Assembly: GCA_016196885.1 (NCBI GenBank)
Contig: JACPWU010000058.1
Location: 94 to 32,093 of the forward strand
DNA length: 32,000 bases
DNA from: Chlamydiota bacterium
GTDB lineage: Bacteria; Auribacterota; JACPWU01
Direction: 5' to 3'
The stretch's first letter is position 1; each line of letters begins with the position of its first letter. A program made the position numbers and the translations under genes. Positions 3,356-32,000 of this stretch are shown here, piece by piece. The notes below the pieces were generated by a model, which saw only the letters and a list, made by a program, of their open reading frames with translations, was not told the DNA's origin and ran no database searches.

Positions 3356-4360
3356 GTGCAAAAATATTTGGTCACAGGCGGAGCAGGCTTCATTGGATCT
3401 AACTTTGTTCATTATCTCCTTTCCAAAAGGAAAGACTGCCAGGTGGTCAATTTGGATAAATTGACTTACGCTGGAAATTTAGAAAATTTGGCCGATTTAA
3501 AAATGGAGGCTCGGTATCAATTTGTGAAAGGGGACATTGCGGATGAAGCTTGTGTGGATCAGATTTTTAAATCTGGGATCGATGTCGTCGTGAATTTTGC
3601 GGCTGAGACCCATGTGGACCGCTCGATTGAAAATCCAACGGATTTTATCAAGACGGATGTCTATGGGACTTATGTCCTTTTGGAGGCGGCCCGCCGATAT
3701 GGCGTGAAAAAATTTATTCAGATTTCGACAGATGAAGTTTATGGAAGCATCGAAAAAGGCTCTTTCCGAGAGACCGATCCTCTGATGCCCAGAAATCCAT
3801 ATTCAGCGAGCAAGGCGGGGGCGGATCGCCTCGCCTATTCTTATTGGGCAACTTATCAATTACCTGTGGTTATCACTCGGGCCTCCAATAATTTTGGGCC
3901 TTATCAATATCCTGAAAAATTTATTTCTCTTTCCGTGACGAATTTGCTAGAGGGAAAAACCATTCCGATTTATGGCGATGGCCGAAATGTGAGGGATTGG
4001 CTTTATGTGGGGGATCATTGTGCGGCCGTTGATTTCCTGGTAGATCAAGGAAAGGATGGCGAGGTCTATAATGTTGCCGGAGGAAATGAAAAAGAAAATA
4101 TCGAGATTGCAAAAGAAATGGTGTGCTATTTAAAGGGTTCTCAAGATTCCATTCAATTTGTGAAGGATCGTTTGGGGCATGACCGCCGTTATTCCTTAAA
4201 TGCGGACAAATTAAAAGTCCTCGGCTGGAAACCAAAATCTTCATTTTTGACGGCTCTTCATGAGACCCTAGATTGGTACCAGAAAAATGAAGTTTGGTGG
4301 AAGAAGATCAAGTCGGGCAAGTTTAAACAGTACTATCAAAAACAGTATGAGCTTAGGTAG
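3356..4360 (+). CDS. rmlB: dTDP-glucose 4,6-dehydratase
   Basis: 334 aa. Carries TGGAGFIGSNF (Rossmann fold), the YSASKAGADRL catalytic YxxxK, and a DEVYG motif. GTG start. Confidence 0.92.
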   Translation: MQKYLVTGGAGFIGSNFVHYLLSKRKDCQVVNLDKLTYAGNLENLADLKMEARYQFVKGDIADEACVDQIFKSGIDVVVNFAAETHVDRSIENPTDFIKTDVYGTYVLLEAARRYGVKKFIQISTDEVYGSIEKGSFRETDPLMPRNPYSASKAGADRLAYSYWATYQLPVVITRASNNFGPYQYPEKFISLSVTNLLEGKTIPIYGDGRNVRDWLYVGDHCAAVDFLVDQGKDGEVYNVAGGNEKENIEIAKEMVCYLKGSQDSIQFVKDRLGHDRRYSLNADKLKVLGWKPKSSFLTALHETLDWYQKNEVWWKKIKSGKFKQYYQKQYELR

Positions 4361-7713: not shown

Positions 7714-8568
7714 ATGAAAGGAACTTCAGGAATGATCTTCATGGTAAAAAGAGACGTAAGGTCTGAAACGATCATTGATGAGCGCCGCACATGGTTTTTT
7801 TTAGATGGGAAGTCTCTTTTGGGTTATCGAGATCTTCTTTTTCTGATGGTGAGAAGAGAATGGGTGGCGAAGTATAAACAAACCCTTCTGGGCCCTTTTT
7901 GGTTTCTTCTGCAACCCCTTTTGTTGACCTCTGTGTTCAGTCTGGTTTTCGGAAAAATCATTCGAGTCCCGACCCAAGGTATTCCCATGCTTTCGTTTTA
8001 TCTTTGCGGACTCTTGCCCTGGGCTTTTTTTTCGCAATGTCTGAACTCCATCTCTAATTGTTTGGTAGATCAGGCCCCTTTGTTTGCAAAGGTTTATTTT
8101 CCCCGGCTGATCATTCCTTTGTCACTGGTATTGTCTCATTTGATGACCTTTTTAATTCAGGTTATTTTTTTCTTAGGCGTGAGCTTCAGCTTCAGTCCGC
8201 GTTTTCTCATGCTTCCTTTTTGTGTTCTTCACACGGCTCTTTTGGGTTCGGGCGTTGGGCTTTTGTTTTCAGCGATGACGGCGAAGTACCGGGATCTGAA
8301 ATTTCTTCTGGGGTTTTTAACGCAGGTCTGGATGTATGGAACGCCGATTGTTTATCCCCTCACTCTTGTTCCAGAAAAGTGGAGATGGATTTCCGAAATA
8401 AATCCCCTGACAGCTGTGATCGAGGAATATCGGCATTTTTATTTTGGCACGCCCTTTGTGATTCATCCTCAAATGATGGCTCTTTCGATTTTGTTCACCC
8501 TTTTCGTTTTTCTAACAGGACTTTTGATGTTTAACCGAGTGCAAGAAACCTTTGTGGATTTTGTCTAA
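7714..8568 (+). CDS. wzm: ABC-2 type polysaccharide/O-antigen export permease
   Basis: YRDLLFLMVRREWVAKYKQTLLGPFWFLLQPLL is the Wzm/TagG N-terminal signature, and there are 6 TM helices. The start may be the ATG at 7732 or 7741. Confidence 0.85.
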   Translation: MKGTSGMIFMVKRDVRSETIIDERRTWFFLDGKSLLGYRDLLFLMVRREWVAKYKQTLLGPFWFLLQPLLLTSVFSLVFGKIIRVPTQGIPMLSFYLCGLLPWAFFSQCLNSISNCLVDQAPLFAKVYFPRLIIPLSLVLSHLMTFLIQVIFFLGVSFSFSPRFLMLPFCVLHTALLGSGVGLLFSAMTAKYRDLKFLLGFLTQVWMYGTPIVYPLTLVPEKWRWISEINPLTAVIEEYRHFYFGTPFVIHPQMMALSILFTLFVFLTGLLMFNRVQETFVDFV

Positions 8569-9807
8569 ATGGCCAAGGTCATAGAAGTTAAAAACATTTC
8601 AAAACTTTATGCCCTGGGGGTGGTTCAATTCAACACCCTTCGGGATTCCTTGTTAGAGAGGTGGCGCCTCTGGAGAGGTGAGCGAAAGAGCCCTCTCGAG
8701 AGGTCGCTTTCTTCCAATACTTTTTGGGCTTTAAAAGATGTGAGCTTTTCTGTCGAGAGAGGGGAAATTGTCGGGCTCATTGGAAAAAATGCTGCTGGAA
8801 AATCCACGCTCTTAAGAATTTTATCCCACATTACGAAGCCTACCGAAGGACGGGCCATTCTTCGAGGGCGGGTGGGCTCGCTTTTAGAAATTGGAACAGG
8901 ATTTCATCCTGAATTGACCGGCAGGGAAAATATCTATCTCAATGGTGCCATTTTTGGGATGAGGAAGAGCGAGGTGAAAAGAAAGTTGGATGAAATAGTG
9001 GCCTTCGCTGAAATCGAGGCCTTTCTGGACACGCCTGTGAAGCGCTATTCCAGCGGGATGTATGTAAGATTGGCCTTCGCTGTCGCGGCCCATTTGGAGG
9101 CCGAGATCTTATTGGTAGATGAGGTACTGGCCGTCGGAGATATTTCTTTTCAGAGAAAATGTTTGGGAAAAATGGGGGATGTGGTGAAAGAGGGCAGAAC
9201 CATTTTGCTGGTGAGTCATCAAATGGCCGCTGTTGAAAATCTGTGTTCGAGGGCTCTTTTGCTGGAGAAGGGCCGTTTGACACTGGAGGGCTCCACAGAA
9301 GAGGTGATTAAACAATATTTGAAAGGCAATGGGCGATTGTCCGAAAAATTTTTTAAAGGGGAGGCGCAAGGGCATGTTCAAATCAAGATGACCCTGCTTT
9401 CAGAAGACGGCCATCCTGTAGATACCGTTCGTTGTGGCGAAGATGTCACTTTTGTCGTGGAAATCCACACTGAAATTCCTCTTCAGAAGGCAGGCCTTGG
9501 GATTGGTATTTCAGACATGTGGGGTCAGAGGATTGCAACCTTTCACACCCATTATCAGTGCGATTCTAAATGGGAAATTCAAGAGAAGGCGATTTTTAAA
9601 GTTACCTGGCCTGAGAATTTTTTATGCCCAGGGCCGTATTTGATCACGGCCAGTGTTTTTGAAGGGGAGGTCGCGATCAGTTATTGGCCGAATGCGGCCA
9701 CTTTAAACATAGCTCCGAGCGATTACTTTAAAACGGGAAAATTGCCCAATCCCAGTCATCAGGGATATGTTTTGGTCAAGGGAAAATGGGAAGTTAGAGA
9801 CCTCTGA
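8569..9807 (+). CDS. wzt: polysaccharide/O-antigen export ABC ATPase with C-terminal beta-sandwich extension (Wzt_C-like)
   Basis: Walker A GKNAAGKST, signature YSSGMYVRLAF, Walker B ILLVDE. About 150 extra C-terminal residues (HVQIKMTLLSEDGHPVDTVRCGEDVTFVVEIH...) sit where Wzt glycan-terminus-binding domains occur. The start abuts the wzm stop. Confidence 0.88.
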   Translation: MAKVIEVKNISKLYALGVVQFNTLRDSLLERWRLWRGERKSPLERSLSSNTFWALKDVSFSVERGEIVGLIGKNAAGKSTLLRILSHITKPTEGRAILRGRVGSLLEIGTGFHPELTGRENIYLNGAIFGMRKSEVKRKLDEIVAFAEIEAFLDTPVKRYSSGMYVRLAFAVAAHLEAEILLVDEVLAVGDISFQRKCLGKMGDVVKEGRTILLVSHQMAAVENLCSRALLLEKGRLTLEGSTEEVIKQYLKGNGRLSEKFFKGEAQGHVQIKMTLLSEDGHPVDTVRCGEDVTFVVEIHTEIPLQKAGLGIGISDMWGQRIATFHTHYQCDSKWEIQEKAIFKVTWPENFLCPGPYLITASVFEGEVAISYWPNAATLNIAPSDYFKTGKLPNPSHQGYVLVKGKWEVRDL

Positions 9808-13090: not shown

Positions 13091-13270
13091 ATTAACTCCC
13101 CTCAGCCCAGCAAGGGAGGCTTTTCTACCAGTGGCAGTGCAAAGCCGACTGCGGTAGTAGATGTTTTTTTACAGCTCTCACCTTAAATAAAAGGGGGGCT
13201 CTGCGCTCTTTGGGTGAGGGGAGTTTTTTTACTCTCCCCTTTAGTTAAAAGGGGAGTCGGAGGGGTTAAG
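13091..13270. repeat. composite structured intergenic repeat (MITE-like; imperfect termini TTAACTCCCC / GGAGGGGTTAA)
   Basis: 11-bp perfect inverted repeat AACTCCCCTCA (13094-13104) / TGAGGGGAGTT (13215-13225). Hairpin CTCCCCTTT (13234-13242) / AAAGGGGAG (13248-13256). Both modules recur elsewhere in the window, at 31898-31965 and 31301-31335. Confidence 0.5.
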
Positions 13271-13280
13271 TTTTCCTTAT

Positions 13281-21739: not shown

Positions 21740-22876
21740 ATGATCAGCTTTCGACAAATAGAAGAATTGATCAACATGAAAACAGATTCTCTCCCCTTGG
21801 TCAGTTTTTATTTAGGCATGGAGGGGAGCCGTTATTCAAAAAAGAATTGCGAAAATGCCTTGAAGGATTTGATGAAAGAAAGAGAGAAGGATATTCAGAA
21901 TTTTGAAAAGAATAAAAATCATAAACTCTCTTTAGAAAAAGATTTTGAAAAAATTCGTCAATATGTGAAAAATGAATTGGATTGGAAAGGGAAAAAAGGT
22001 GTGGCCATTTTTTCTTCTTCCTCTATGAATTTCTGGCAAGTTTATTTTTTGCCCAGTTCTGTGAAAAATACTTTGGTCATTGATCATACACCTTACATTC
22101 GTCCGTTGATTGCCCTTTTTGATGAATATCGCCGATTTTGCATGGTCTTGGTGGATAAATCCAAGGCGAGAATTTTTGAGGTGTTCTTGGGCGAAATTGA
22201 AGAACATACAGAGTTTACAGATGCCTTGCCTCGAAAAGCCAAAGCAGGGGGCTGGAAGGGATATGAAGAAAATCGTATTCAGCGGCATTTAACAGAAGAG
22301 GTACGGAAGCATTTTAAAAAGGTTGCGGATTCACTTACGGATCTTTTTAAGTTGCATCATTTTGATTGGTTGATTTTAGGAGGGCATCGGGCAGAGTTTC
22401 CTGAGTTTGAGAAAGAGCTACGTCCTTTTTTAGAGGACAGAATTGTGGCTCGTTTGGAAATGGATTTACGCGCTTCTCAGGAAAATATTTTGGAGAAGGC
22501 GCTGAAGGTTGAGAAGGAGATTTCCAAAGAGCATGGCGAGACTTCTGTGAAAAATCTTTTAGAACTCACAGGAGAAAGGCAAGCCGTGACAGGCGTTCTC
22601 GGAACTTTAACAGCTTTTCGAAGAGGGCAGGTTCACAGCCTTGTGGTCAGCCGCGATTATCAGGTGCCTGGAATGCGGTGTTTGAAATGCGGTTATTTGG
22701 ATCAAGAACATAAGAATTGTCCTCAGTGTAAAGAGCCTTTACAGGCGATTCCTGATTTGGTGGACGATTTGGTAGAGGCAGCCGTCACTCAAGGGTGTAA
22801 GGTTGAGTATGTTTCTGGAAATGGTCGGGATCGTCAGTGGGGTGGGATCGGGGCGATTTTGAGGTTTAAAGGTTGA
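21740..22876 (+). CDS. bacterial eRF1/Pelota-like protein (baeRF-type) with GGW in place of GGQ and a zinc-ribbon insert
   Basis: The M-domain-like stretch RFCMVLVDKSKARIFEV...ALPRKAKAGGWKG aligns with eRF1 YGFIVMDGSGALFG...DLPKKHGRGGQS. The C-domain has AVTGVLGTLTAFRRGQVHSLVVS and a terminal GGIGAILRF (eRF1/Pelota GGIGGILRY-type). CLKCG...CPQC sits at the mini-domain position. RBS AGGAGA at 21727-21732. Confidence 0.7.
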   Translation: MISFRQIEELINMKTDSLPLVSFYLGMEGSRYSKKNCENALKDLMKEREKDIQNFEKNKNHKLSLEKDFEKIRQYVKNELDWKGKKGVAIFSSSSMNFWQVYFLPSSVKNTLVIDHTPYIRPLIALFDEYRRFCMVLVDKSKARIFEVFLGEIEEHTEFTDALPRKAKAGGWKGYEENRIQRHLTEEVRKHFKKVADSLTDLFKLHHFDWLILGGHRAEFPEFEKELRPFLEDRIVARLEMDLRASQENILEKALKVEKEISKEHGETSVKNLLELTGERQAVTGVLGTLTAFRRGQVHSLVVSRDYQVPGMRCLKCGYLDQEHKNCPQCKEPLQAIPDLVDDLVEAAVTQGCKVEYVSGNGRDRQWGGIGAILRFKG

Positions 22877-22986
22877 AGGATTACAAGTACAGGACGGTTT
22901 CATTTAGAGTTTTGAATTTGAGTTTTAGAATTTGTTTCGGATTTCGAATTTCGTGCTTCGGATTTGGTATTTTAATTTGATCATTG

Positions 22987-22995
22987 TGATATAAT
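22987..22995 (+). promoter_or_regulatory. candidate extended -10 promoter (TGaTATAAT) for the CBS-korAB operon
   Basis: TGATATAAT at 22987-22995, preceded by about 80 nt of phased A/T-tract repeats (GAGTTTTGAATTT / GAGTTTTAGAATTT / CGGATTTCGAATTTCG...). Confidence 0.35.
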
Positions 22996-23029
22996 GCCGT
23001 CCTGTTTATTAAGAGAGGTATGTCAAGAT

Positions 23030-23509
23030 ATGCCTACATCAAAGCCGGTGGAAGTATTGCTGAAAGAAAAGAAAATTTATGAGATTGTGAATCCAAGGCT
23101 TGTCCAGGCTGGGCCGGATATTTCTATCAAAGAGGCCATTCGTTTGATGCAGGAGCGTCATGCGGGTTATATCGTGATTGCGAAGGATCAAAAAGTGGTG
23201 GGTCTTTTTGCGGAAAATGAAGTGGTGTTAAAAATTTTAGAAAATAACGTGGATTGGGATCAACCGGTGAGTTTGTTCATGAATTCGAGTCCTGTGACTT
23301 TGAATATCAAAGATCCTGTGGGGAAGGCGATTGATTTGATGGGACATGGGAATTTTTATCATATCCCGCTGGTAGATGAAAATAATCATTTGATGAATGT
23401 TTTATCTGTTCGTACCCTCATTCGTTTCTTGTCTGAATTCTACCCGACAGAGGTCTATAACTTACCGCCCAAGCACGATCAGATTATACTGACACAAGAA
23501 GGGGGGTAA
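23030..23509 (+). CDS. CBS domain pair protein
   Basis: Two CBS repeats (..ISIKEAIRLMQERHAGYIVIAKDQKVVGLFAENEV.. and ..VGKAIDLMGHGNFYHIPLVDENNHLMNVLSVRTLI..). I prefer the ATG at 23030, because the ATG at 22994 lies inside the candidate -10 element. Confidence 0.8.
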   Translation: MPTSKPVEVLLKEKKIYEIVNPRLVQAGPDISIKEAIRLMQERHAGYIVIAKDQKVVGLFAENEVVLKILENNVDWDQPVSLFMNSSPVTLNIKDPVGKAIDLMGHGNFYHIPLVDENNHLMNVLSVRTLIRFLSEFYPTEVYNLPPKHDQIILTQEGG

Positions 23510-26996: not shown

Positions 26997-28134
26997 GTAT
27001 AAGAGAATATTAACCTTAGATAAGTTTTCTCATGAGAGTTCTTTCTTGTGGGGACCCCGTCAAACTGGGAAGAGTACTCTGTTAGAGCAGCTTTTTCCTG
27101 ATGCGCCTTATTATGATCTTTTACTTTCAGATGTGGTCACTCGTTTCCAAGTGAAACCCTCGCTTTTAAGGGAAGAGCTTTTATCCAGTCCCCCTCACGG
27201 GCCAGTCATTCTCGATGAAATCCAGAAGGTTCCAGAACTTTTAGATGAAATCCAGTGGCTGATGACTAAGAAAAATATCCATTTTATTCTGTGTGGATCT
27301 AGTGCAAGAAAACTGAAAAGGACGGGAGCTAATCTTTTGGGAGGCAGGGCCATTCGGTATCAACTTTATCCTCTCGTGTTTCCTGAAATCTCTGATTTTG
27401 ATCTCATAAAGGCTTTGAATCATGGTTTGCTCCCACGTCATTATCTTTCTAAAGAGCCACAGGAACTCGTCGAGTCCTATATTGCCGATTACCTTCAACA
27501 TGAAATCGCTGCGGAGTCTCTTGTACGTAATCTCCCTTCCTTTCACCGCTTTCTTGAAGTGGCGGCTTTCAGCAATGGTGAGATTCCTGTTTTTAGTAAC
27601 ATTGCGTCAGATTGTGGTGTGAGCTCTCCCACCGTGAGGGAGTATTTTGAAATTCTACAGGATACTCTGATAGGCTCTTTTTGTCCGGCCTATCTGAAAC
27701 GGCTTAAGCGTCGTTTAATTCAGTCACCTAAATTTTATTATTTTGATGTGGGGATCGCAAATTTTCTTCTTAAAAGAGGTTTTATTCAATATGGATCGGA
27801 ATCTTTTGGGAGAGCTTTTGAACATTTTATCTACCAAGAAGTAATAGCTCATTCGCAATACTCTCGCAAGAAGTACCCTGTCAGTTATTGGAGAACTTCT
27901 TCAGAATACGAAGTGGACTTTATTCTGGGGGACGCCATGATTGCACTAGAGGTGAAAGGAGTCCCGCTGGTCAATTCAAAACACCTTAAAGGTCTTCAGA
28001 TGTTTTGCGAAGATTATGCAGTGAAAAAAGCTATAGTGGTTTCGCTGGATCCCCGGCCTAGAAAAATGGGTGACATTGAAATTCTTCCCTGGAAAAAATT
28101 TCTTGAAGCGCTTTGGTCTGGAGAACTTATTTAA
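26995..28134 (+). CDS. AAA_14 ATPase with DUF4143 C-terminal domain (PD-(D/E)xK nuclease-like motif visible)
   Basis: Walker A GPRQTGKSTLL and Walker B-like VILDEIQ. C-terminal YEVDFILGDAMIALEVKG has the D...E-x-K arrangement typical of restriction-endonuclease-fold domains. No SD precedes the ATG. Confidence 0.85.
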   Translation: MYKRILTLDKFSHESSFLWGPRQTGKSTLLEQLFPDAPYYDLLLSDVVTRFQVKPSLLREELLSSPPHGPVILDEIQKVPELLDEIQWLMTKKNIHFILCGSSARKLKRTGANLLGGRAIRYQLYPLVFPEISDFDLIKALNHGLLPRHYLSKEPQELVESYIADYLQHEIAAESLVRNLPSFHRFLEVAAFSNGEIPVFSNIASDCGVSSPTVREYFEILQDTLIGSFCPAYLKRLKRRLIQSPKFYYFDVGIANFLLKRGFIQYGSESFGRAFEHFIYQEVIAHSQYSRKKYPVSYWRTSSEYEVDFILGDAMIALEVKGVPLVNSKHLKGLQMFCEDYAVKKAIVVSLDPRPRKMGDIEILPWKKFLEALWSGELI

Positions 28135-28225
28135 ACATGATTTCTCACAAATTGAAACGATCGTCAGAAAAAGAGTAAGTGGGTCGAAGCGAGAGGGGGA
28201 ACTCAGGACAGGTGCAAATAAATTC

Positions 28226-28254
28226 TTGACAGTTTTTCAATTCTCATTTAGATT
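28226..28254 (+). promoter_or_regulatory. candidate sigma70-type promoter of the Fur-family gene
   Basis: TTGACA (28226-28231), 17-nt spacer, TAGATT (28249-28254). Confidence 0.5.
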
Positions 28255-28260
28255 CTATCC

Positions 28261-28281
28261 AATTTAGATTTAGTCTCAATT
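28261..28281. promoter_or_regulatory. candidate Fur-family operator (10-1-10 palindrome), autoregulatory position
   Basis: AATTTAGATT-T-AGTCTCAATT, with arms complementary at 8 of 10 positions. It lies immediately downstream of the -10 and shares architecture and sequence with the box at 28751-28771. Confidence 0.5.
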
Positions 28282-28283
28282 AA

Positions 28284-28730
28284 ATGAAAACTCAAACGGA
28301 TATGCCAAATCGGTTTACTTCATTTCTTGAGGATAGAGGTCTTAAGTTGACGTACGAGCGGAGATATCTTTTTGAAAAAGTCTCGCGTTTGAAAGGACAC
28401 TTTAATGCAGATTCTCTTTATGAGTCTCTTCAGAGAGACAAGGCTCGCATTGCTCGGGGGACGGTTTACCGGACCATTCCGCTTCTTTTGGAGAGTGGGG
28501 TCATTCAGAAGTCGGTAGGTGAGGGAAAAAGAGAGTTTTTCGAGAGCCAGACGGGAAAAGAGCATCACGATCATCTGGTATGTTTGAAATGTCATAAAGT
28601 GATTGAGTTTCACTCGGATGAGATTGAGAAGTTTCAAGATCAGATTTGTGAAAAATATGACTTTGAAATGGTTTTTCATGATCACCGAATGTATGGACAC
28701 TGCGGGAGTTGTAAGGAAAAAAAGAAGTAG
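28284..28730 (+). CDS. fur: Fur family transcriptional regulator (metal specificity unknown)
   Basis: wHTH region (RGTVYRTIPLLLESGVI), HHDHLVCLKCHKVIEF and a C-terminal CGSC (two CxxC pairs). The start could be the ATG at 28302. Confidence 0.85.
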   Translation: MKTQTDMPNRFTSFLEDRGLKLTYERRYLFEKVSRLKGHFNADSLYESLQRDKARIARGTVYRTIPLLLESGVIQKSVGEGKREFFESQTGKEHHDHLVCLKCHKVIEFHSDEIEKFQDQICEKYDFEMVFHDHRMYGHCGSCKEKKK

Positions 28731-28750
28731 GGAAATTTTTTTTAATTTTC

Positions 28751-28771
28751 AATTGAGACTCTGTCTCAATT
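28751..28771. promoter_or_regulatory. candidate Fur-family operator upstream of the OMP/FMN-bind/apbE operon
   Basis: AATTGAGACT-C-TGTCTCAATT, with arms complementary at 9 of 10 positions. It lies 22 nt upstream of the ATG at 28793 (RBS AAGGAGG at 28781-28787). Confidence 0.55.
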
Positions 28772-28792
28772 AGAACAAGAAAGGAGGATGTT

Positions 28793-29746
28793 ATGAGGTT
28801 TGAAAATAAGGTGAAGAAGGTTTATCGTGGGTTAGGATTAAAAATCTCTTTGTTTGCAATAGGGGTCTTGGGCTTTGCGGCATCTGCTTTTGCACATGAA
28901 AGTGTTTTCGCTTGGACATATACGACAGATTTGTTACCCAAAGGGAGATGGGAGATTGAGCATTGGACGACGGCTCGATTGGAAAAAGAGCATGGAACTT
29001 ACAACGTCGTTGATTTTCGTGAGGAGTTTGAGTACGGGGTCACAGATAATTTTGGTGTGTCCCTCTATTTGAACCATCATGATGTGAATGCTAAAGAGAG
29101 TGTTCCTCAAGAGGATCCCAATAACTCAGGGCATCGCTTGCCCGGAAGCTTTGAAACGGGAGGCGAAGACATACACGCGGATCATGATCCCTCTCTTCCT
29201 TTTGATTCTTATCATTTTGAATCTGTTTCGGTGGAACTTATTTATCGGATTTTAAGCCCCTATAAGGATCCAATCGGTTTGGCTTTGTATTTAGAGCCCG
29301 AGTTTGGGGATGAAGAGACAGAGATAGAATCAAAAATTCTTTTGCAAAAAAATTGGTTGGAGGATCAGTTGGTCTGGGCGCTCAACTTGAATTATGCACT
29401 TGAATTTGAAAAGGAGGAGGAAGGGGAATACGAAAGGGACGCCAAATTTGAATGGTTTACGGGGCTTTCGTATCGTTTTATTTCAAACTGGTCCTTTGGT
29501 TTAGAATTCTGGAATCATCATGAATTTGCGGATGCAACAGAGCATGAGCATTCTGCTTATTTTCTTGGGCCGACGCTGCATTATGGAGCCAAAAATTGGT
29601 GGGCATCCTTAGGATTTTTACATCAGCTTCCAATTGGACAGGCAATTTCCGAAGACAATAAAGAATTTGCTGAGCACGATGGCTATATTTTTGGCGATGA
29701 ACATGAAAAGTATTATATTCGCCTGAAGATCGGGATTAATTTCTAA
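28793..29746 (+). CDS. putative outer-membrane beta-barrel protein, His/Glu-rich
   Basis: Signal peptide (..ISLFAIGVLGFAASAFA/HE). Alternating amphipathic segments. C-terminus ..YYIRLKIGINF ends in Phe, which is OMP-typical. About 17 His by my count, often in HxH, HH or EH clusters. Confidence 0.55.
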   Translation: MRFENKVKKVYRGLGLKISLFAIGVLGFAASAFAHESVFAWTYTTDLLPKGRWEIEHWTTARLEKEHGTYNVVDFREEFEYGVTDNFGVSLYLNHHDVNAKESVPQEDPNNSGHRLPGSFETGGEDIHADHDPSLPFDSYHFESVSVELIYRILSPYKDPIGLALYLEPEFGDEETEIESKILLQKNWLEDQLVWALNLNYALEFEKEEEGEYERDAKFEWFTGLSYRFISNWSFGLEFWNHHEFADATEHEHSAYFLGPTLHYGAKNWWASLGFLHQLPIGQAISEDNKEFAEHDGYIFGDEHEKYYIRLKIGINF

Positions 29747-29756
29747 GAGGCACAAT

Positions 29757-30296
29757 ATGAAAAGGTTTGGGAAAACTTTAAGATGGTTGACAGTGCCTGG
29801 GATTGTCATTGTGATGGATGCTCCTTCTTATGCTGAAGTGTATTTAAGTGTGGAGCAAGCGCAGCAAGTCATTTTTCCTGGAGAAGGCTTCTCAGAAATA
29901 CCTTTACAATTGAGCAGCTATCAAAAAGCTGAGATTAAGAAGCGCTCTGGGATTGCAGTTCGAGATCGCGGGATGCGCGTCTGGAAAACAGGCAAAGGAG
30001 ATTTTTTGATTGTAGATACGGTGCTTGGAAAACATGAGTTTATTACCTATGCAGTGGGGATTCTTTCTGATGGAACGGTCCGTCAAATTGAAATCATGGA
30101 TTATCGAGAAACTTATGGTTATCAAATACGGGATGAGGTTTGGCGTAAACAATTTGTTGGGAAGAATGCACAATCTGAGTTAATGCTGGATAAAGATATT
30201 AAGAATATCAGTGGGGCGACTCTTTCGTGTCGTCACATCACAGATGGGGTGAAGCGACTGCTGGCAACTTATGAGACCGTCTTTCGAAAAAAATAA
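29757..30296 (+). CDS. secreted FMN-binding domain protein (ApbE substrate type)
   Basis: N-terminal signal sequence (LRWLTVPGIVIVMDAPSYA/EV) and a C-terminal FMN_bind motif DIKNISGATLSCRHI ([S/T]GAT flavinylation site). Confidence 0.8.
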   Translation: MKRFGKTLRWLTVPGIVIVMDAPSYAEVYLSVEQAQQVIFPGEGFSEIPLQLSSYQKAEIKKRSGIAVRDRGMRVWKTGKGDFLIVDTVLGKHEFITYAVGILSDGTVRQIEIMDYRETYGYQIRDEVWRKQFVGKNAQSELMLDKDIKNISGATLSCRHITDGVKRLLATYETVFRKK

Positions 30297-31128
30297 TCGG
30301 ATTAGAAGAGCGAGACCTTTGTTGGGGACTTTTGTTGAAGTGTCCCTCTTGGAATCTGAGTCTCAAAAGACGCAAGAAGCCATTGATCAGGCTTTTGAAG
30401 TGATTTATCAAGTTCATTGCTTGATGAGTTTTCACAATTCGATGAGTGATGTGTCGAGGCTTAACCGTGGGGCCTTTCAGGAACCGGTGAAAGTGCATCC
30501 CTGGACTTATGAAGTTTTGAAAAAGTCAGCGGAACTTTCTCTTTTAACAAAAGGTCTTTTTGATTGCACGGTTGCTCCTCAATTGGTTAAGTGGGAATAT
30601 TTGCCAGGACAGGTTGAAAAGAAGAGCAAGAGTTGGGGTTCTTACGAGGATATTAAATTTTTAAGTGCCCATAAAATCAGTTTTAGAAATCCCTTGATGA
30701 TTGATCTAGGAGGGATTGCCAAAGGGTTTGCAGTGGACCAGGCGGTGACCGTTCTAAAGTCAGCGGGAATGAAGAACGGTTCTGTGAATGCTGGAGGGGA
30801 TCTTAAAATTTTTGGTCGAAAAAATCAGCCTGTGTATGTGAAGTCTCCAAGTCGCCCGAGCGATCTTGTGTTAATAGGGGAAGTCAAAGAGATGTCTGTG
30901 GCAACTTCCTCCCATTATTATTCGAGAAAATATTTAAAGGGTCGTCAGGTGAGTTCCATTATGAATCCTCTCCAAAATAAACCTTGTCTCAAAAAATGGA
31001 GCGTTTCTGTTATGGCTTCCTCTTGCATGACAGCGGATGCCTTGACAAAGGTGGTGATGCTAGCTGGAGATGCTGCAAAATCATTTTTGGAAAAATATGA
31101 GGCACGGGCGGTGATTATTAGAAAATAG
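30271..31128 (+). CDS. apbE: FAD:protein FMN transferase (ApbE family)
   Basis: RPLLGTFVEVSL, MIDLGGIAKGFAVDQAV, NAGGDL and TADALTK are ApbE motifs. It overlaps the FMN-binding gene by 26 nt. No signal peptide or lipobox is visible. Confidence 0.88.
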   Translation: MRPSFEKNNRIRRARPLLGTFVEVSLLESESQKTQEAIDQAFEVIYQVHCLMSFHNSMSDVSRLNRGAFQEPVKVHPWTYEVLKKSAELSLLTKGLFDCTVAPQLVKWEYLPGQVEKKSKSWGSYEDIKFLSAHKISFRNPLMIDLGGIAKGFAVDQAVTVLKSAGMKNGSVNAGGDLKIFGRKNQPVYVKSPSRPSDLVLIGEVKEMSVATSSHYYSRKYLKGRQVSSIMNPLQNKPCLKKWSVSVMASSCMTADALTKVVMLAGDAAKSFLEKYEARAVIIRK

Positions 31129-31334
31129 GACTATGGAAAATGAAGTAACTCCCCCATCCCCTCTTGTTATGCGTTTTGTAGTCGCCCCATTTATGGGGCT
31201 GCCCGATGAATCGGGCGACTACAAAAAAACATAATGGGGAGGACTTTCATCCTCTACGATGATCTCGAAAGATCATTGGAATTAAACTAAGAGGGGAGAG
31301 ACTCTCCCCTTAGATAAGGGGAGTTGGAGGGGTT
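31129..31334. repeat. composite structured intergenic repeat (second copy of the TAACTCCCC...GGAGGGGTTA type element with a different internal module)
   Basis: 14-bp stem TTTTGTAGTCGCCC (31174-31187) / GGGCGACTACAAAA (31213-31226) encloses GCCCGA-TGAA-TCGGGC (31201-31216). Hairpin ATGATCT-CGAA-AGATCAT (31259-31276). The terminal module ACTCTCCCCTTAGATAAGGGGAGTTGGAGGGGTTA (31301-31335) is homologous to 13231-13268. Confidence 0.5.
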
Positions 31335-31829
31335 ATGGGTTGTTCCAGCACCATGAAAATTCCTAAAAAGCAAAGATCCATTCTATATATCAGCTTAATC
31401 ATTCTTTTTTTGTCCGGAGCGATTTGGTGGGGTGCCAACTTTTTGATAAAACCTGAAACAGAAATAGATAGCTTTATTTATACCTCTCGTTCCCTCAGTC
31501 TGGAAATTCATGGGGGAGTGGCGATGGTGGTTTTAATGGTTTTAGGATCTCTTATCCCAAATCATATTCTAAAATCATGGAGGGCCAAGTTAAATAGGAG
31601 AAGCGGGGTTCTTCTCATCACTGTTTTTGTCCTTCTCATTCTAACGGGATATTTTCTCTACTATGCAGATGAAAATTTAAGAAATTTTTCAAGCACCCTT
31701 CATCTTGTTCTGGGATTTCTTTTGCCTTTTTTTGTGATAGGTCATATTTTGAGAAGTCGCGCTTTTCGGCGTAAGGAGAATAAGAGGAGGGTCGGTCGTG
31801 TTAAAATACAAGAACGAGCTGTCTTATGA
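31335..31829 (+). CDS. 4-TM membrane protein with four intramembrane His (possible di-heme cytochrome b-like, DUF4405-like)
   Basis: 164 aa with four hydrophobic helices. His residues sit at both ends of TM2 (EIHGG...IPNH) and TM4 (LHLVLG...VIGH). The start may be the ATG at 31353. Confidence 0.55.
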   Translation: MGCSSTMKIPKKQRSILYISLIILFLSGAIWWGANFLIKPETEIDSFIYTSRSLSLEIHGGVAMVVLMVLGSLIPNHILKSWRAKLNRRSGVLLITVFVLLILTGYFLYYADENLRNFSSTLHLVLGFLLPFFVIGHILRSRAFRRKENKRRVGRVKIQERAVL

Positions 31830-31875
31830 AAATGGAACGGGTCTGGATCGTATATTTAGAAGTGTGTCCTTTTAA

Positions 31876-31965
31876 GAGGAGGCGGGTCCTGTCCCTCCTC
31901 ACCCAGCAAGGTAGGTTTTTCTGCCGGTGGCAGAAAAACCTTCCGCGGTAGTAAATGTTATTTTT
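31876..31965. repeat. structured intergenic repeat, second copy of the family seen at 13101-13170
   Basis: GAGGAGG (31876-31882) / CCTCCTC (31894-31900). Perfect hairpin GTTTTTCTGCC-GGT-GGCAGAAAAAC (about 31915-31939). 31898-31965 aligns with 13101-13170 at roughly three-quarters identity by eye. Confidence 0.45.
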
Positions 31966-32000
31966 CGTTTATCAACTGACGGCACAGAGGTTATAGCCCC

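Follow-up and report, generated by a model that had tools for sequence, protein, structure and literature searches.

A 32,000-nucleotide stretch of DNA (the window, meaning here the whole stretch that was analysed: positions 94 to 32,093 of contig JACPWU010000058.1, assembly GCA_016196885.1) from a Chlamydiota bacterium, assigned to the Auribacterota in the GTDB lineage, carries close to its end a cassette of four co-oriented genes encoding an outer-membrane beta-barrel of the DUF6662 family, a secreted FMN_bind protein (FMN, flavin mononucleotide), an ApbE-type FAD:protein FMN transferase (FAD, flavin adenine dinucleotide), and a putative di-heme cytochrome b with four transmembrane helices (the 4-TM protein). 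We propose, with a confidence only a little above even (a probability of roughly 0.55), that this cassette is a self-contained extracytoplasmic iron-reduction module that spans three envelope compartments and serves iron import. The proposal is built on domain assignments, conserved residues, predicted folds, synteny and neighbouring genes, which are presented below together with the other functions that the cassette might have.

Extracytoplasmic reduction of Fe(III) by bacteria is understood in few systems only. The cassette is compact and portable, and its carriers number hundreds of species, among them members of Udaeobacter, the dominant genus in soil, as well as Ralstonia, Sphingobium and Luteibacter that are in culture; it is therefore directly testable. 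A function of the kind proposed would give a role to DUF6662 and to more than 1000 clusters of small cytochrome-like proteins, and would bring an outer-membrane component into flavin-based extracytosolic electron transfer.

A four-gene cassette conserved across phyla

The four open reading frames all lie on the forward strand, as in the initial annotation of this DNA: the barrel gene (28793-29746, 317 amino acids or aa), the FMN_bind gene (29757-30296, 179 aa), the apbE gene (30271-31128, 285 aa), which shares 26 nt with the FMN_bind gene, and, past an insert at 31129-31334, the 4-TM gene (31335-31829, 164 aa). A scan of one genome per species yielded 527 relatives of the barrel protein, and the best 80 loci (numbered with an L, the window being L001) were examined. 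When the count was limited to loci followed by 2.3 kb of sequence or more, 69 remained, of which 62 had the genes for the barrel, FMN_bind, ApbE and 4-TM proteins in this order and on one strand, in at least five phyla. Conservation of synteny had been named at the outset as a check on the grouping, and at 62/69 it strongly supports the four genes acting as one functional module.

Cassettes were found in Verrucomicrobiota, Omnitrophota, Auribacterota, and Alpha-, Beta- and Gammaproteobacteria, the carriers including many Candidatus Udaeobacter and other Verrucomicrobiota, Rickettsiales metagenome-assembled genomes (MAGs), Sphingobium bisphenolivorans and S. fuliginis, Ralstonia flaminis, Luteibacter yeojuensis, Perlucidibaca, Polaromonas, Dechloromonas, and several Burkholderiales MAGs. 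One copy is plasmid-borne, within a copper-resistance island of the Ralstonia pickettii plasmid pRp12D0 (L082, record 52765-57927), and another, in Polaromonas (L081, 9703-12666), adjoins a Tn3-family transposase gene and part of a gene for a P-type ATPase; given these two settings, the cassette appears to be mobile. Three loci (L061-L063) are nearly identical though labelled Ralstonia and Rhodobacteraceae.

Cytochrome, flavoprotein, flavin transferase and barrel

The 4-TM protein had initially been described as a 164-aa protein with four membrane helices and four histidines, resembling DUF4405 proteins and b-type cytochromes, a description that survives in its histidines and its cytochrome kinship but less well in its DUF4405 membership. 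The match to PF01292 (Ni_hydr_CYTB, prokaryotic cytochrome b561) lies just over the Pfam cut-off and covers residues 75-139 only (32.4 bits, cut-off 30.1, E 1e-7), whereas that to PF14358 (DUF4405) falls under it (18.0 bits, cut-off 26.7, E 0.004). At E <= 0.01, PF01292 is matched by 40/70 family members and PF14358 by 15/70, and since the proteins are marginal to both models across these 70 members, we regard them, as judged from sequence, as a distinct small family bordering the two. An exhaustive HMMER search retrieved 1746 cluster representatives (clusters defined at 50% identity) at E <= 0.001, more than 1000 of them (1041) at E <= 1e-10, while a word-based search retrieved just three relatives. 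The NCBI product of the window gene, labelled 'DUF4405 domain-containing', has 158 aa rather than the 164 given here.

H59, H77, H123 and H137 are invariant in the 70 aligned relatives (26-52% identical to the window protein), as are G60, G71, Y110, R116 and G127, and the same four histidines are invariant in the 55 copies encoded within cassettes. AlphaFold predicts four long helices with a predicted local distance difference test score (pLDDT) of 93.6. The topology predicted from the sequence by the positive-inside rule has the N-terminus, the loop between the second and third helices (TM2 and TM3), and the C-terminus in the cytoplasm, which would place H59 and H123 near the outer face of the membrane and H77 and H137 near the inner one, the two members of each pair being at matching depths. 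The best structural matches of the model, E. coli hydrogenase-1 cytochrome b and cytochrome b6, are weak (E 0.07, TM-score 0.53), and a sequence-profile search of the PDB with the family gave no meaningful match. Heme binding is nonetheless likely by analogy with a DUF4405 protein of six TM helices from Oscillospiraceae, encoded in a cluster with apbE, for which binding of heme b has been demonstrated experimentally (Huang, Meheust, Barquera and Light, mSystems 2024; PMC11334425).

The second gene, annotated from the start as encoding a secreted FMN_bind protein with an NISGAT motif, retains that identity: the product matches PF04205 (49.2 bits, cut-off 22, E 8.5e-13; Pfam), with weak additional matches to RnfG/NqrC models (NCBIfam), and carries a predicted flavinylation site at T155 within D147-IKN-ISGAT. 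Among 68 homologs from related loci, D147, N150, G153, A154, T155, L156 and S157 are invariant together with H93 and H160, and with T155 among them the acceptor Thr of the D-x-x-[ST]-G-A-[ST] motif is fixed. The N-termini of the homologs all resemble Sec signal peptides with AxA sites (AFA/VQYL or AHA/TVYL; SYA/EVYL in the window protein), and export by Tat was discarded, a twin-arginine motif occurring in none of them. The NCBI gene call, of 160 aa, begins past the hydrophobic segment (29757-29813); the start at 29757, which gives the longer protein, is probably the right one, and the NCBI call too short, because the homologs keep a Sec-type signal peptide. Of the two invariant histidines, H93 (30033-30035) and H160 (30234-30236), the latter lies five residues past the acceptor Thr, and the pair could form a metal site beside the flavin.

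The third protein is the ApbE flavin transferase it was first taken for, matching PF02424 over residues 18-279 of 285 (172.3 bits, cut-off 25.6, E 2e-50; Pfam) with its catalytic motifs intact. Across 56 cassette ApbEs the invariant positions are D145, G147-G152, A174-D177, A211, S213, A255, D256, T259 and K260, which trace the FAD- and Mg-binding motifs GGIAKG, AGGD, A-x-S and AD..TK. The N-terminus of these proteins is short: residue 18 of the window protein corresponds to position 42 in the NCBIfam model of the E. coli enzyme, and in the window as in essentially all loci the open reading frame starts just 6-17 residues ahead of the first conserved strand (R-R-x-R-P-L-L-G-T), the start of the cassette proteins lying typically some 10-12 residues in front of the domain. 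An extension of this length is too short for a signal peptide or a lipobox.

The first gene of the cassette encodes a His-rich protein with a signal peptide (approximately residues 1-34, ending AFA before HE) and a C-terminal Phe, and its early description as a beta-barrel-like protein agrees with both profile and model: it matches PF20367 (59.8 bits, cut-off 27, E 4e-16; Pfam), and AlphaFold, from an alignment of 39 sequences, predicts a barrel of ~13-14 strands with a mean pLDDT of 90.2. It contains 17 His and has 56 acidic residues against 26 basic ones. Of 366 homologs, every full-length one carries PF20367 and is annotated solely as DUF6662. Foldseek places FapF, NanC and the COG4313 channel of Pseudomonas putida nearest to the model (E ~1e-9 to 1e-7, TM-score ~0.55, identity 7-11%). 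Seven glutamates (E54, E56, E78, E80, E148, E168 and E179) are invariant, and H242, H253, H263, H304 and, in part, H67 are kept family-wide or in most members, the remaining His being kept just in the clade closest to the window. Residue alternation along the predicted strands puts the seven invariant Glu, R76, R152, K181, E238, H242, H253 and H263 on polar strand faces, which in the model would correspond to the barrel interior. A conserved interior that is acidic and bears His would be compatible with a channel for cations or metals, a compatibility that falls short of proof. A conduit of the porin-cytochrome kind, with the flavoprotein seated inside the barrel, was considered and rejected, as a barrel of 12-14 strands is probably too narrow for it.

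Two further observations concern the barrel gene. In some Verrucomicrobiota cassettes (L005, L008, L013 and L020, at ~7945-8840; L009, at 8481-8978) the first barrel gene is followed, ahead of the FMN_bind gene, by another, divergent paralog of DUF6662. Moreover, the FMN_bind, ApbE and cytochrome proteins of the window have their closest counterparts in L064 and L073 (phmmer E values of 5e-74, 1e-92 and 3e-33, respectively, for L064), while the window barrel is only 39% identical to the barrels of these loci and 70-77% identical to a Verrucomicrobiota/Auribacterota type that has a 13-residue loop insert (around residues 105-117). Because the barrel and the other three proteins thus differ in their nearest relatives, barrel genes may have been exchanged between cassette lineages, as this pattern suggests.

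Proposed iron reduction and the competing explanations

From these parts we infer a mechanism, including its heme and flavin occupancy, electron donor, direction of flow, substrate and regulation. The 4-TM protein would bind two b hemes, an inner one between H77 and H137 and an outer one between H59 and H123; electrons would reach the inner heme from a donor in the membrane or the cytoplasm, which is probably quinol, and cross to the outer heme. The FMN bound covalently to T155 of the periplasmic FMN_bind protein, where the neighbouring ApbE would have placed it, would take up these electrons and reduce free or chelated Fe(III) to Fe(II). The DUF6662 barrel, through its Glu/His-lined interior, would most likely pass the metal substrate across the outer membrane, and the Fe(II) formed would be imported by FTR1 or FeoAB where these are co-encoded and by a transporter encoded elsewhere in the organism studied here. 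In this genome, a Fur-family repressor would probably govern both its own gene and the cassette by way of a shared palindromic operator.

Iron as the substrate is suggested by the neighbouring genes. In 7 Burkholderiales loci a gene for an FTR1 permease (PF03239, 8e-27) lies directly upstream and co-oriented, usually with hemP (PF10636) ahead of it. Altogether hemP is found upstream in 8 loci, and it is the gene immediately before that for the barrel in Auribacterota L002 and in Omnitrophota L064 and L073. Directly downstream of the 4-TM gene there is feoA-feoB in Omnitrophota L038 and L067, and downstream of it in L053 a gene for a cytochrome c-FTR1 fusion; in Sphingobium, a TonB-dependent receptor is encoded close by. 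Rickettsiales L066 has a Fur box with 2/19 mismatches 54 bp ahead of its barrel gene. Within 300 bp upstream of the barrel genes, Fur-box-like sites reach about 10 times the density that they have in the loci as a whole, albeit on small numbers. Of the metal link and the Fur-family control anticipated in the initial annotation, the former is supported by iron-related neighbours in other lineages; as to the latter, a fur gene adjoins the cassette in three loci (the window, L002 and L073), which is the exception rather than the rule. In two Omnitrophota loci the place of hemP directly before the barrel gene is taken by a small DUF2292 (YezD-like) gene (L055, 2725-2916; L067, 6727-6897).

Several points weigh against an iron-reduction module. 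No ferrous transporter is found among the proteins of the window, whose contig ends ~170 bp after the last gene, and in some 40 Verrucomicrobiota loci the flanks are housekeeping genes (rpoBC, cobalamin adenosyltransferase, rpsB, tsf) that are functionally uninformative. The 4-TM gene abuts or overlaps apbE in almost all other loci and is separated from it only in this genome, by an insert that could detach the cytochrome gene from its operon. Electron transfer from quinol to flavin is uphill at typical flavin potentials. The three Ralstonia plasmids (of R. pickettii, R. insidiosa and Ralstonia sp.) carry the cassette directly behind a gene for a copper P-type ATPase with a heavy-metal-binding domain and among copAB, a gene for a four-helix-bundle copper-binding protein, a heavy-metal sensor kinase/regulator pair, and copABCD, and a CusRS-like two-component pair is divergently adjacent in three Sphingomonadales loci, including Sphingobium; in view of these contexts, iron may be neither the sole nor a universal substrate. 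Lastly, an extracytosolic location is typical of characterised periplasmic ApbEs, if not strictly defining, yet the cassette ApbE is predicted to be cytoplasmic and its substrate to be secreted.

This last point, which the scheme first drawn for these genes left unaddressed, poses the question of where and when covalent flavinylation occurs. Cytoplasmic ApbEs exist but act on cytoplasmic substrates (PMC12052999). In the cassette the sole protein with a flavinylation motif is the secreted FMN_bind protein, and the barrel and 4-TM proteins were rejected as alternative substrates in the cytoplasm, having neither a [ST]GA[ST] motif nor invariant Ser/Thr in cytoplasmic loops. A frameshift fusion of FMN_bind to ApbE, which would export the latter by means of the former's signal peptide, was likewise rejected, as the gene overlap is not conserved and apbE begins after the FMN_bind stop codon in some loci, L025 and L035 among them. 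It is possible that the unfolded FMN_bind precursor is flavinylated in the cytoplasm before Sec export, and this would be new, since to our knowledge covalent flavinylation before export has not been described so far. A bolder form of the proposal, which we consider rather doubtful, would have the cassette constitute an autonomous three-compartment pathway of iron reduction, with a metal-selective channel, a covalent flavoprotein and a minimal di-heme cytochrome b, serve as a principal iron route in abundant soil Verrucomicrobiota (Udaeobacter), and have its ApbE flavinylate the Sec precursor prior to export; were this true, such flavinylation would remove the need for a periplasmic supply of FAD.

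Among the alternatives, the one that holds up best, though unlikely in our estimate, is a general or copper-specific metal reductase that converts periplasmic Cu(II) to Cu(I) or handles copper redox states otherwise, with different lineages using the cassette for copper homeostasis or for iron uptake. Yeast Fre reductases do serve both metals, and the copper-resistance genes around the Ralstonia plasmid cassettes, the CusRS-like pairs of the three Sphingomonadales loci, the Tn3-family transposase flanking the Polaromonas cassette (L081), and a His/Glu-rich barrel that suits Cu(II) as well as iron are all in keeping with it; the copper-island copies suggest that one redox unit is reused for different metals. 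However, the iron-specific neighbours (FTR1, FeoAB, hemP and Fur) are more numerous and occur in more lineages, the window regulator is of the Fur and not the CusR/CopR type, and Cu(I) in the periplasm would raise toxicity unless its production is coupled to export.

The FTR1 genes directly upstream in 7 loci and the cytochrome c-FTR1 fusion of L053 could also be read in the opposite sense, as signs of a ferroxidase-type partner in which the flavoprotein oxidises periplasmic Fe(II), electrons drain through the cytochrome b to the quinone pool, and Fe(III) is fed to FTR1. Known FTR1 systems (Fet3/Ftr1, EfeUOB, FtrABCD) do have an oxidising partner, and FtrABCD also a membrane electron-transfer subunit. 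We judge this improbable, given that flavins oxidise Fe(II) poorly and reduce Fe(III) well, that the feoAB context in Omnitrophota suits the production rather than the consumption of Fe(II), and that most cassettes have no FTR1 gene near them. Least probable of all is a role in envelope redox maintenance independent of metal transport (superoxide or peroxide detoxification or envelope repair, after the fashion of CybB or MsrPQ, with the barrel as a structural or substrate-entry partner), for even if the cytochrome is nearest to prokaryotic cytochrome b561, a family with a superoxide:quinone oxidoreductase, if metal-related regulators might be present because metal and oxidative stress coincide, and if the Fur and CusRS families include peroxide sensors (PerR, which the window regulator matches, and HprRS), the cassette encodes no peroxidase and no reductase partner such as MsrP, and co-oriented, abutting genes for ferrous-iron transporters would be hard to explain.

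Regulation and genomic surroundings of the window cassette

Reduction of iron by the cassette would, in this genome, be placed under local control by the gene that lies 62 bp upstream of the barrel gene (28284-28730, forward strand), which encodes a Fur-family metalloregulator of 148 aa (PF01475, 3e-29) with HHDH and two CxxC motifs. A candidate operator, the perfect 9-3-9 palindrome AATTGAGAC-TCT-GTCTCAATT (28751-28771), ends 22 bp before the ATG of the barrel gene, and an operator-like site with 2 mismatches to this palindrome, AATTTAGATTTAGTCTCAATT (28261-28281), lies between the fur ATG and the -10 hexamer of a sigma-70-like promoter candidate on the forward strand (28226-28254, TTGACA-17-TAGATT; 10/12 in a consensus scan, which is a match to consensus only). 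With up to three mismatches allowed, the window has three matches to the palindrome against 0.03 expected, the third (3502-3522) with three mismatches. In Auribacterota L002 a matching pair of sites occupies equivalent positions, one upstream of fur and a near-identical palindrome just after it. Given an operator pair common to the window and L002, the sequences fit autoregulation, in which the adjacent Fur-family protein would control its own gene and the cassette through the shared palindrome. The regulator's best NCBIfam match is Fur (89.9 against an equivalog cut-off of 146), PerR is matched too, and every equivalog cut-off is missed; since, in addition, the local palindrome differs from the classical 19-bp Fur box, we class the protein as a Fur-family member rather than as Fur in the strict sense.

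The insert between apbE and the 4-TM gene (31129-31334, ~207 bp) is a genome-specific repeat outside the conserved cassette, with a predicted structure of great stability (minimum free energy of -93 kcal/mol), and has stretches in common with 13091-13280 and with the end of the contig at 31830-32000. An Rfam search of 28000-32000 gave sub-threshold chance matches only. The three intergenic segments, which are predicted to form very stable hairpins, look like copies of a palindromic repeat family particular to this genome. The remaining genes of the window encode proteins of O-antigen/lipopolysaccharide biosynthesis, a dehydroquinase, a baeRF-family protein, KorAB (2-oxoacid:ferredoxin oxidoreductase) and CBS proteins; of these, an eRF1-like bacterial protein (baeRF family 10) followed by a CBS-domain protein (21740-23509), encoded upstream of the 2-oxoacid:ferredoxin oxidoreductase genes, is unrelated to the cassette.

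Comparison with known systems

The initial annotation did not recognise this four-gene combination as a characterised system, and a literature search agrees with this: among the papers searched DUF6662 is mentioned in none, and no description of the cassette was found for ApbE with FTR1/hemP or with copper resistance, or in the two surveys of flavinylation that come closest to it. The first of these connected flavinylation gene clusters (with PepSY-like FoxB/VciB, MsrQ-like, or P19/FTR1 proteins) with the reduction and assimilation of iron (Meheust et al., eLife 2021; PMC8238504). Like such clusters, the cassette combines an ApbE with a secreted flavinylation substrate and a membrane protein predicted to hold two hemes, and the clusters for their part have co-located ferrous iron transporters, Fur regulation and a proposed role as assimilatory iron reductases. 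Set beside these features, the window has the secreted flavinylation substrate and the putative transmembrane carrier but, up to the end of its contig, no iron transporter, which is present in related loci as FTR1 or FeoAB. Unlike in these clusters, the membrane protein of the cassette matches none of PF03929, PF16357 and PF01794, the substrate domain is FMN_bind instead of DUF2271, the outer-membrane part is a dedicated DUF6662 barrel instead of a TonB-dependent receptor, and the ApbE has no signal peptide.

The second survey described flavinylation-associated cytochromes of the DUF4405 type, proposed to carry electrons across the cytoplasmic membrane (PMC11334425), which resemble the 4-TM protein in having four conserved His and in being encoded beside apbE and a flavinylated protein. 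The heme-b-binding member has six TM helices, in contrast to the four of the window protein, and belongs to a Gram-positive cluster with Flavodoxin_4 and an energy-coupling factor (ECF) flavin transporter; an outer-membrane partner, present in the cassette, is not described for these cytochromes. Prokaryotic cytochromes b561 (PF01292: HyaC, FdnI, CybB) are similar in their four TM helices, their size of ~160-180 aa, and a His pair 14 residues apart in the last helix, but differ from the 4-TM protein in the position of the other two His, which in the latter are both in TM2, 18 residues apart, and in the partner, a hydrogenase or formate dehydrogenase rather than a flavoprotein. The barrel, in turn, recalls FapF, the COG4313/MetA-pathway channel (PDB 4rl8) and NanC, 12-stranded plugged outer-membrane channels, in its small, monomer-sized barrel and its N-terminal segment before the first strand; it is set apart from them by the lack of a PF13557 match, by its conserved set of Glu and His in the predicted interior, and by having redox proteins as genomic partners and not genes for amyloid secretion or aromatic uptake.

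The cassette is a member of the class of ApbE-linked extracytosolic electron-transfer systems, for which a link to iron and DUF4405-like partners were already known (PMC8238504; PMC11334425). What it adds to this class is the DUF6662 barrel, a minimal four-helix cytochrome, FMN_bind in place of DUF2271 or flavodoxin, and an ApbE devoid of a signal peptide.

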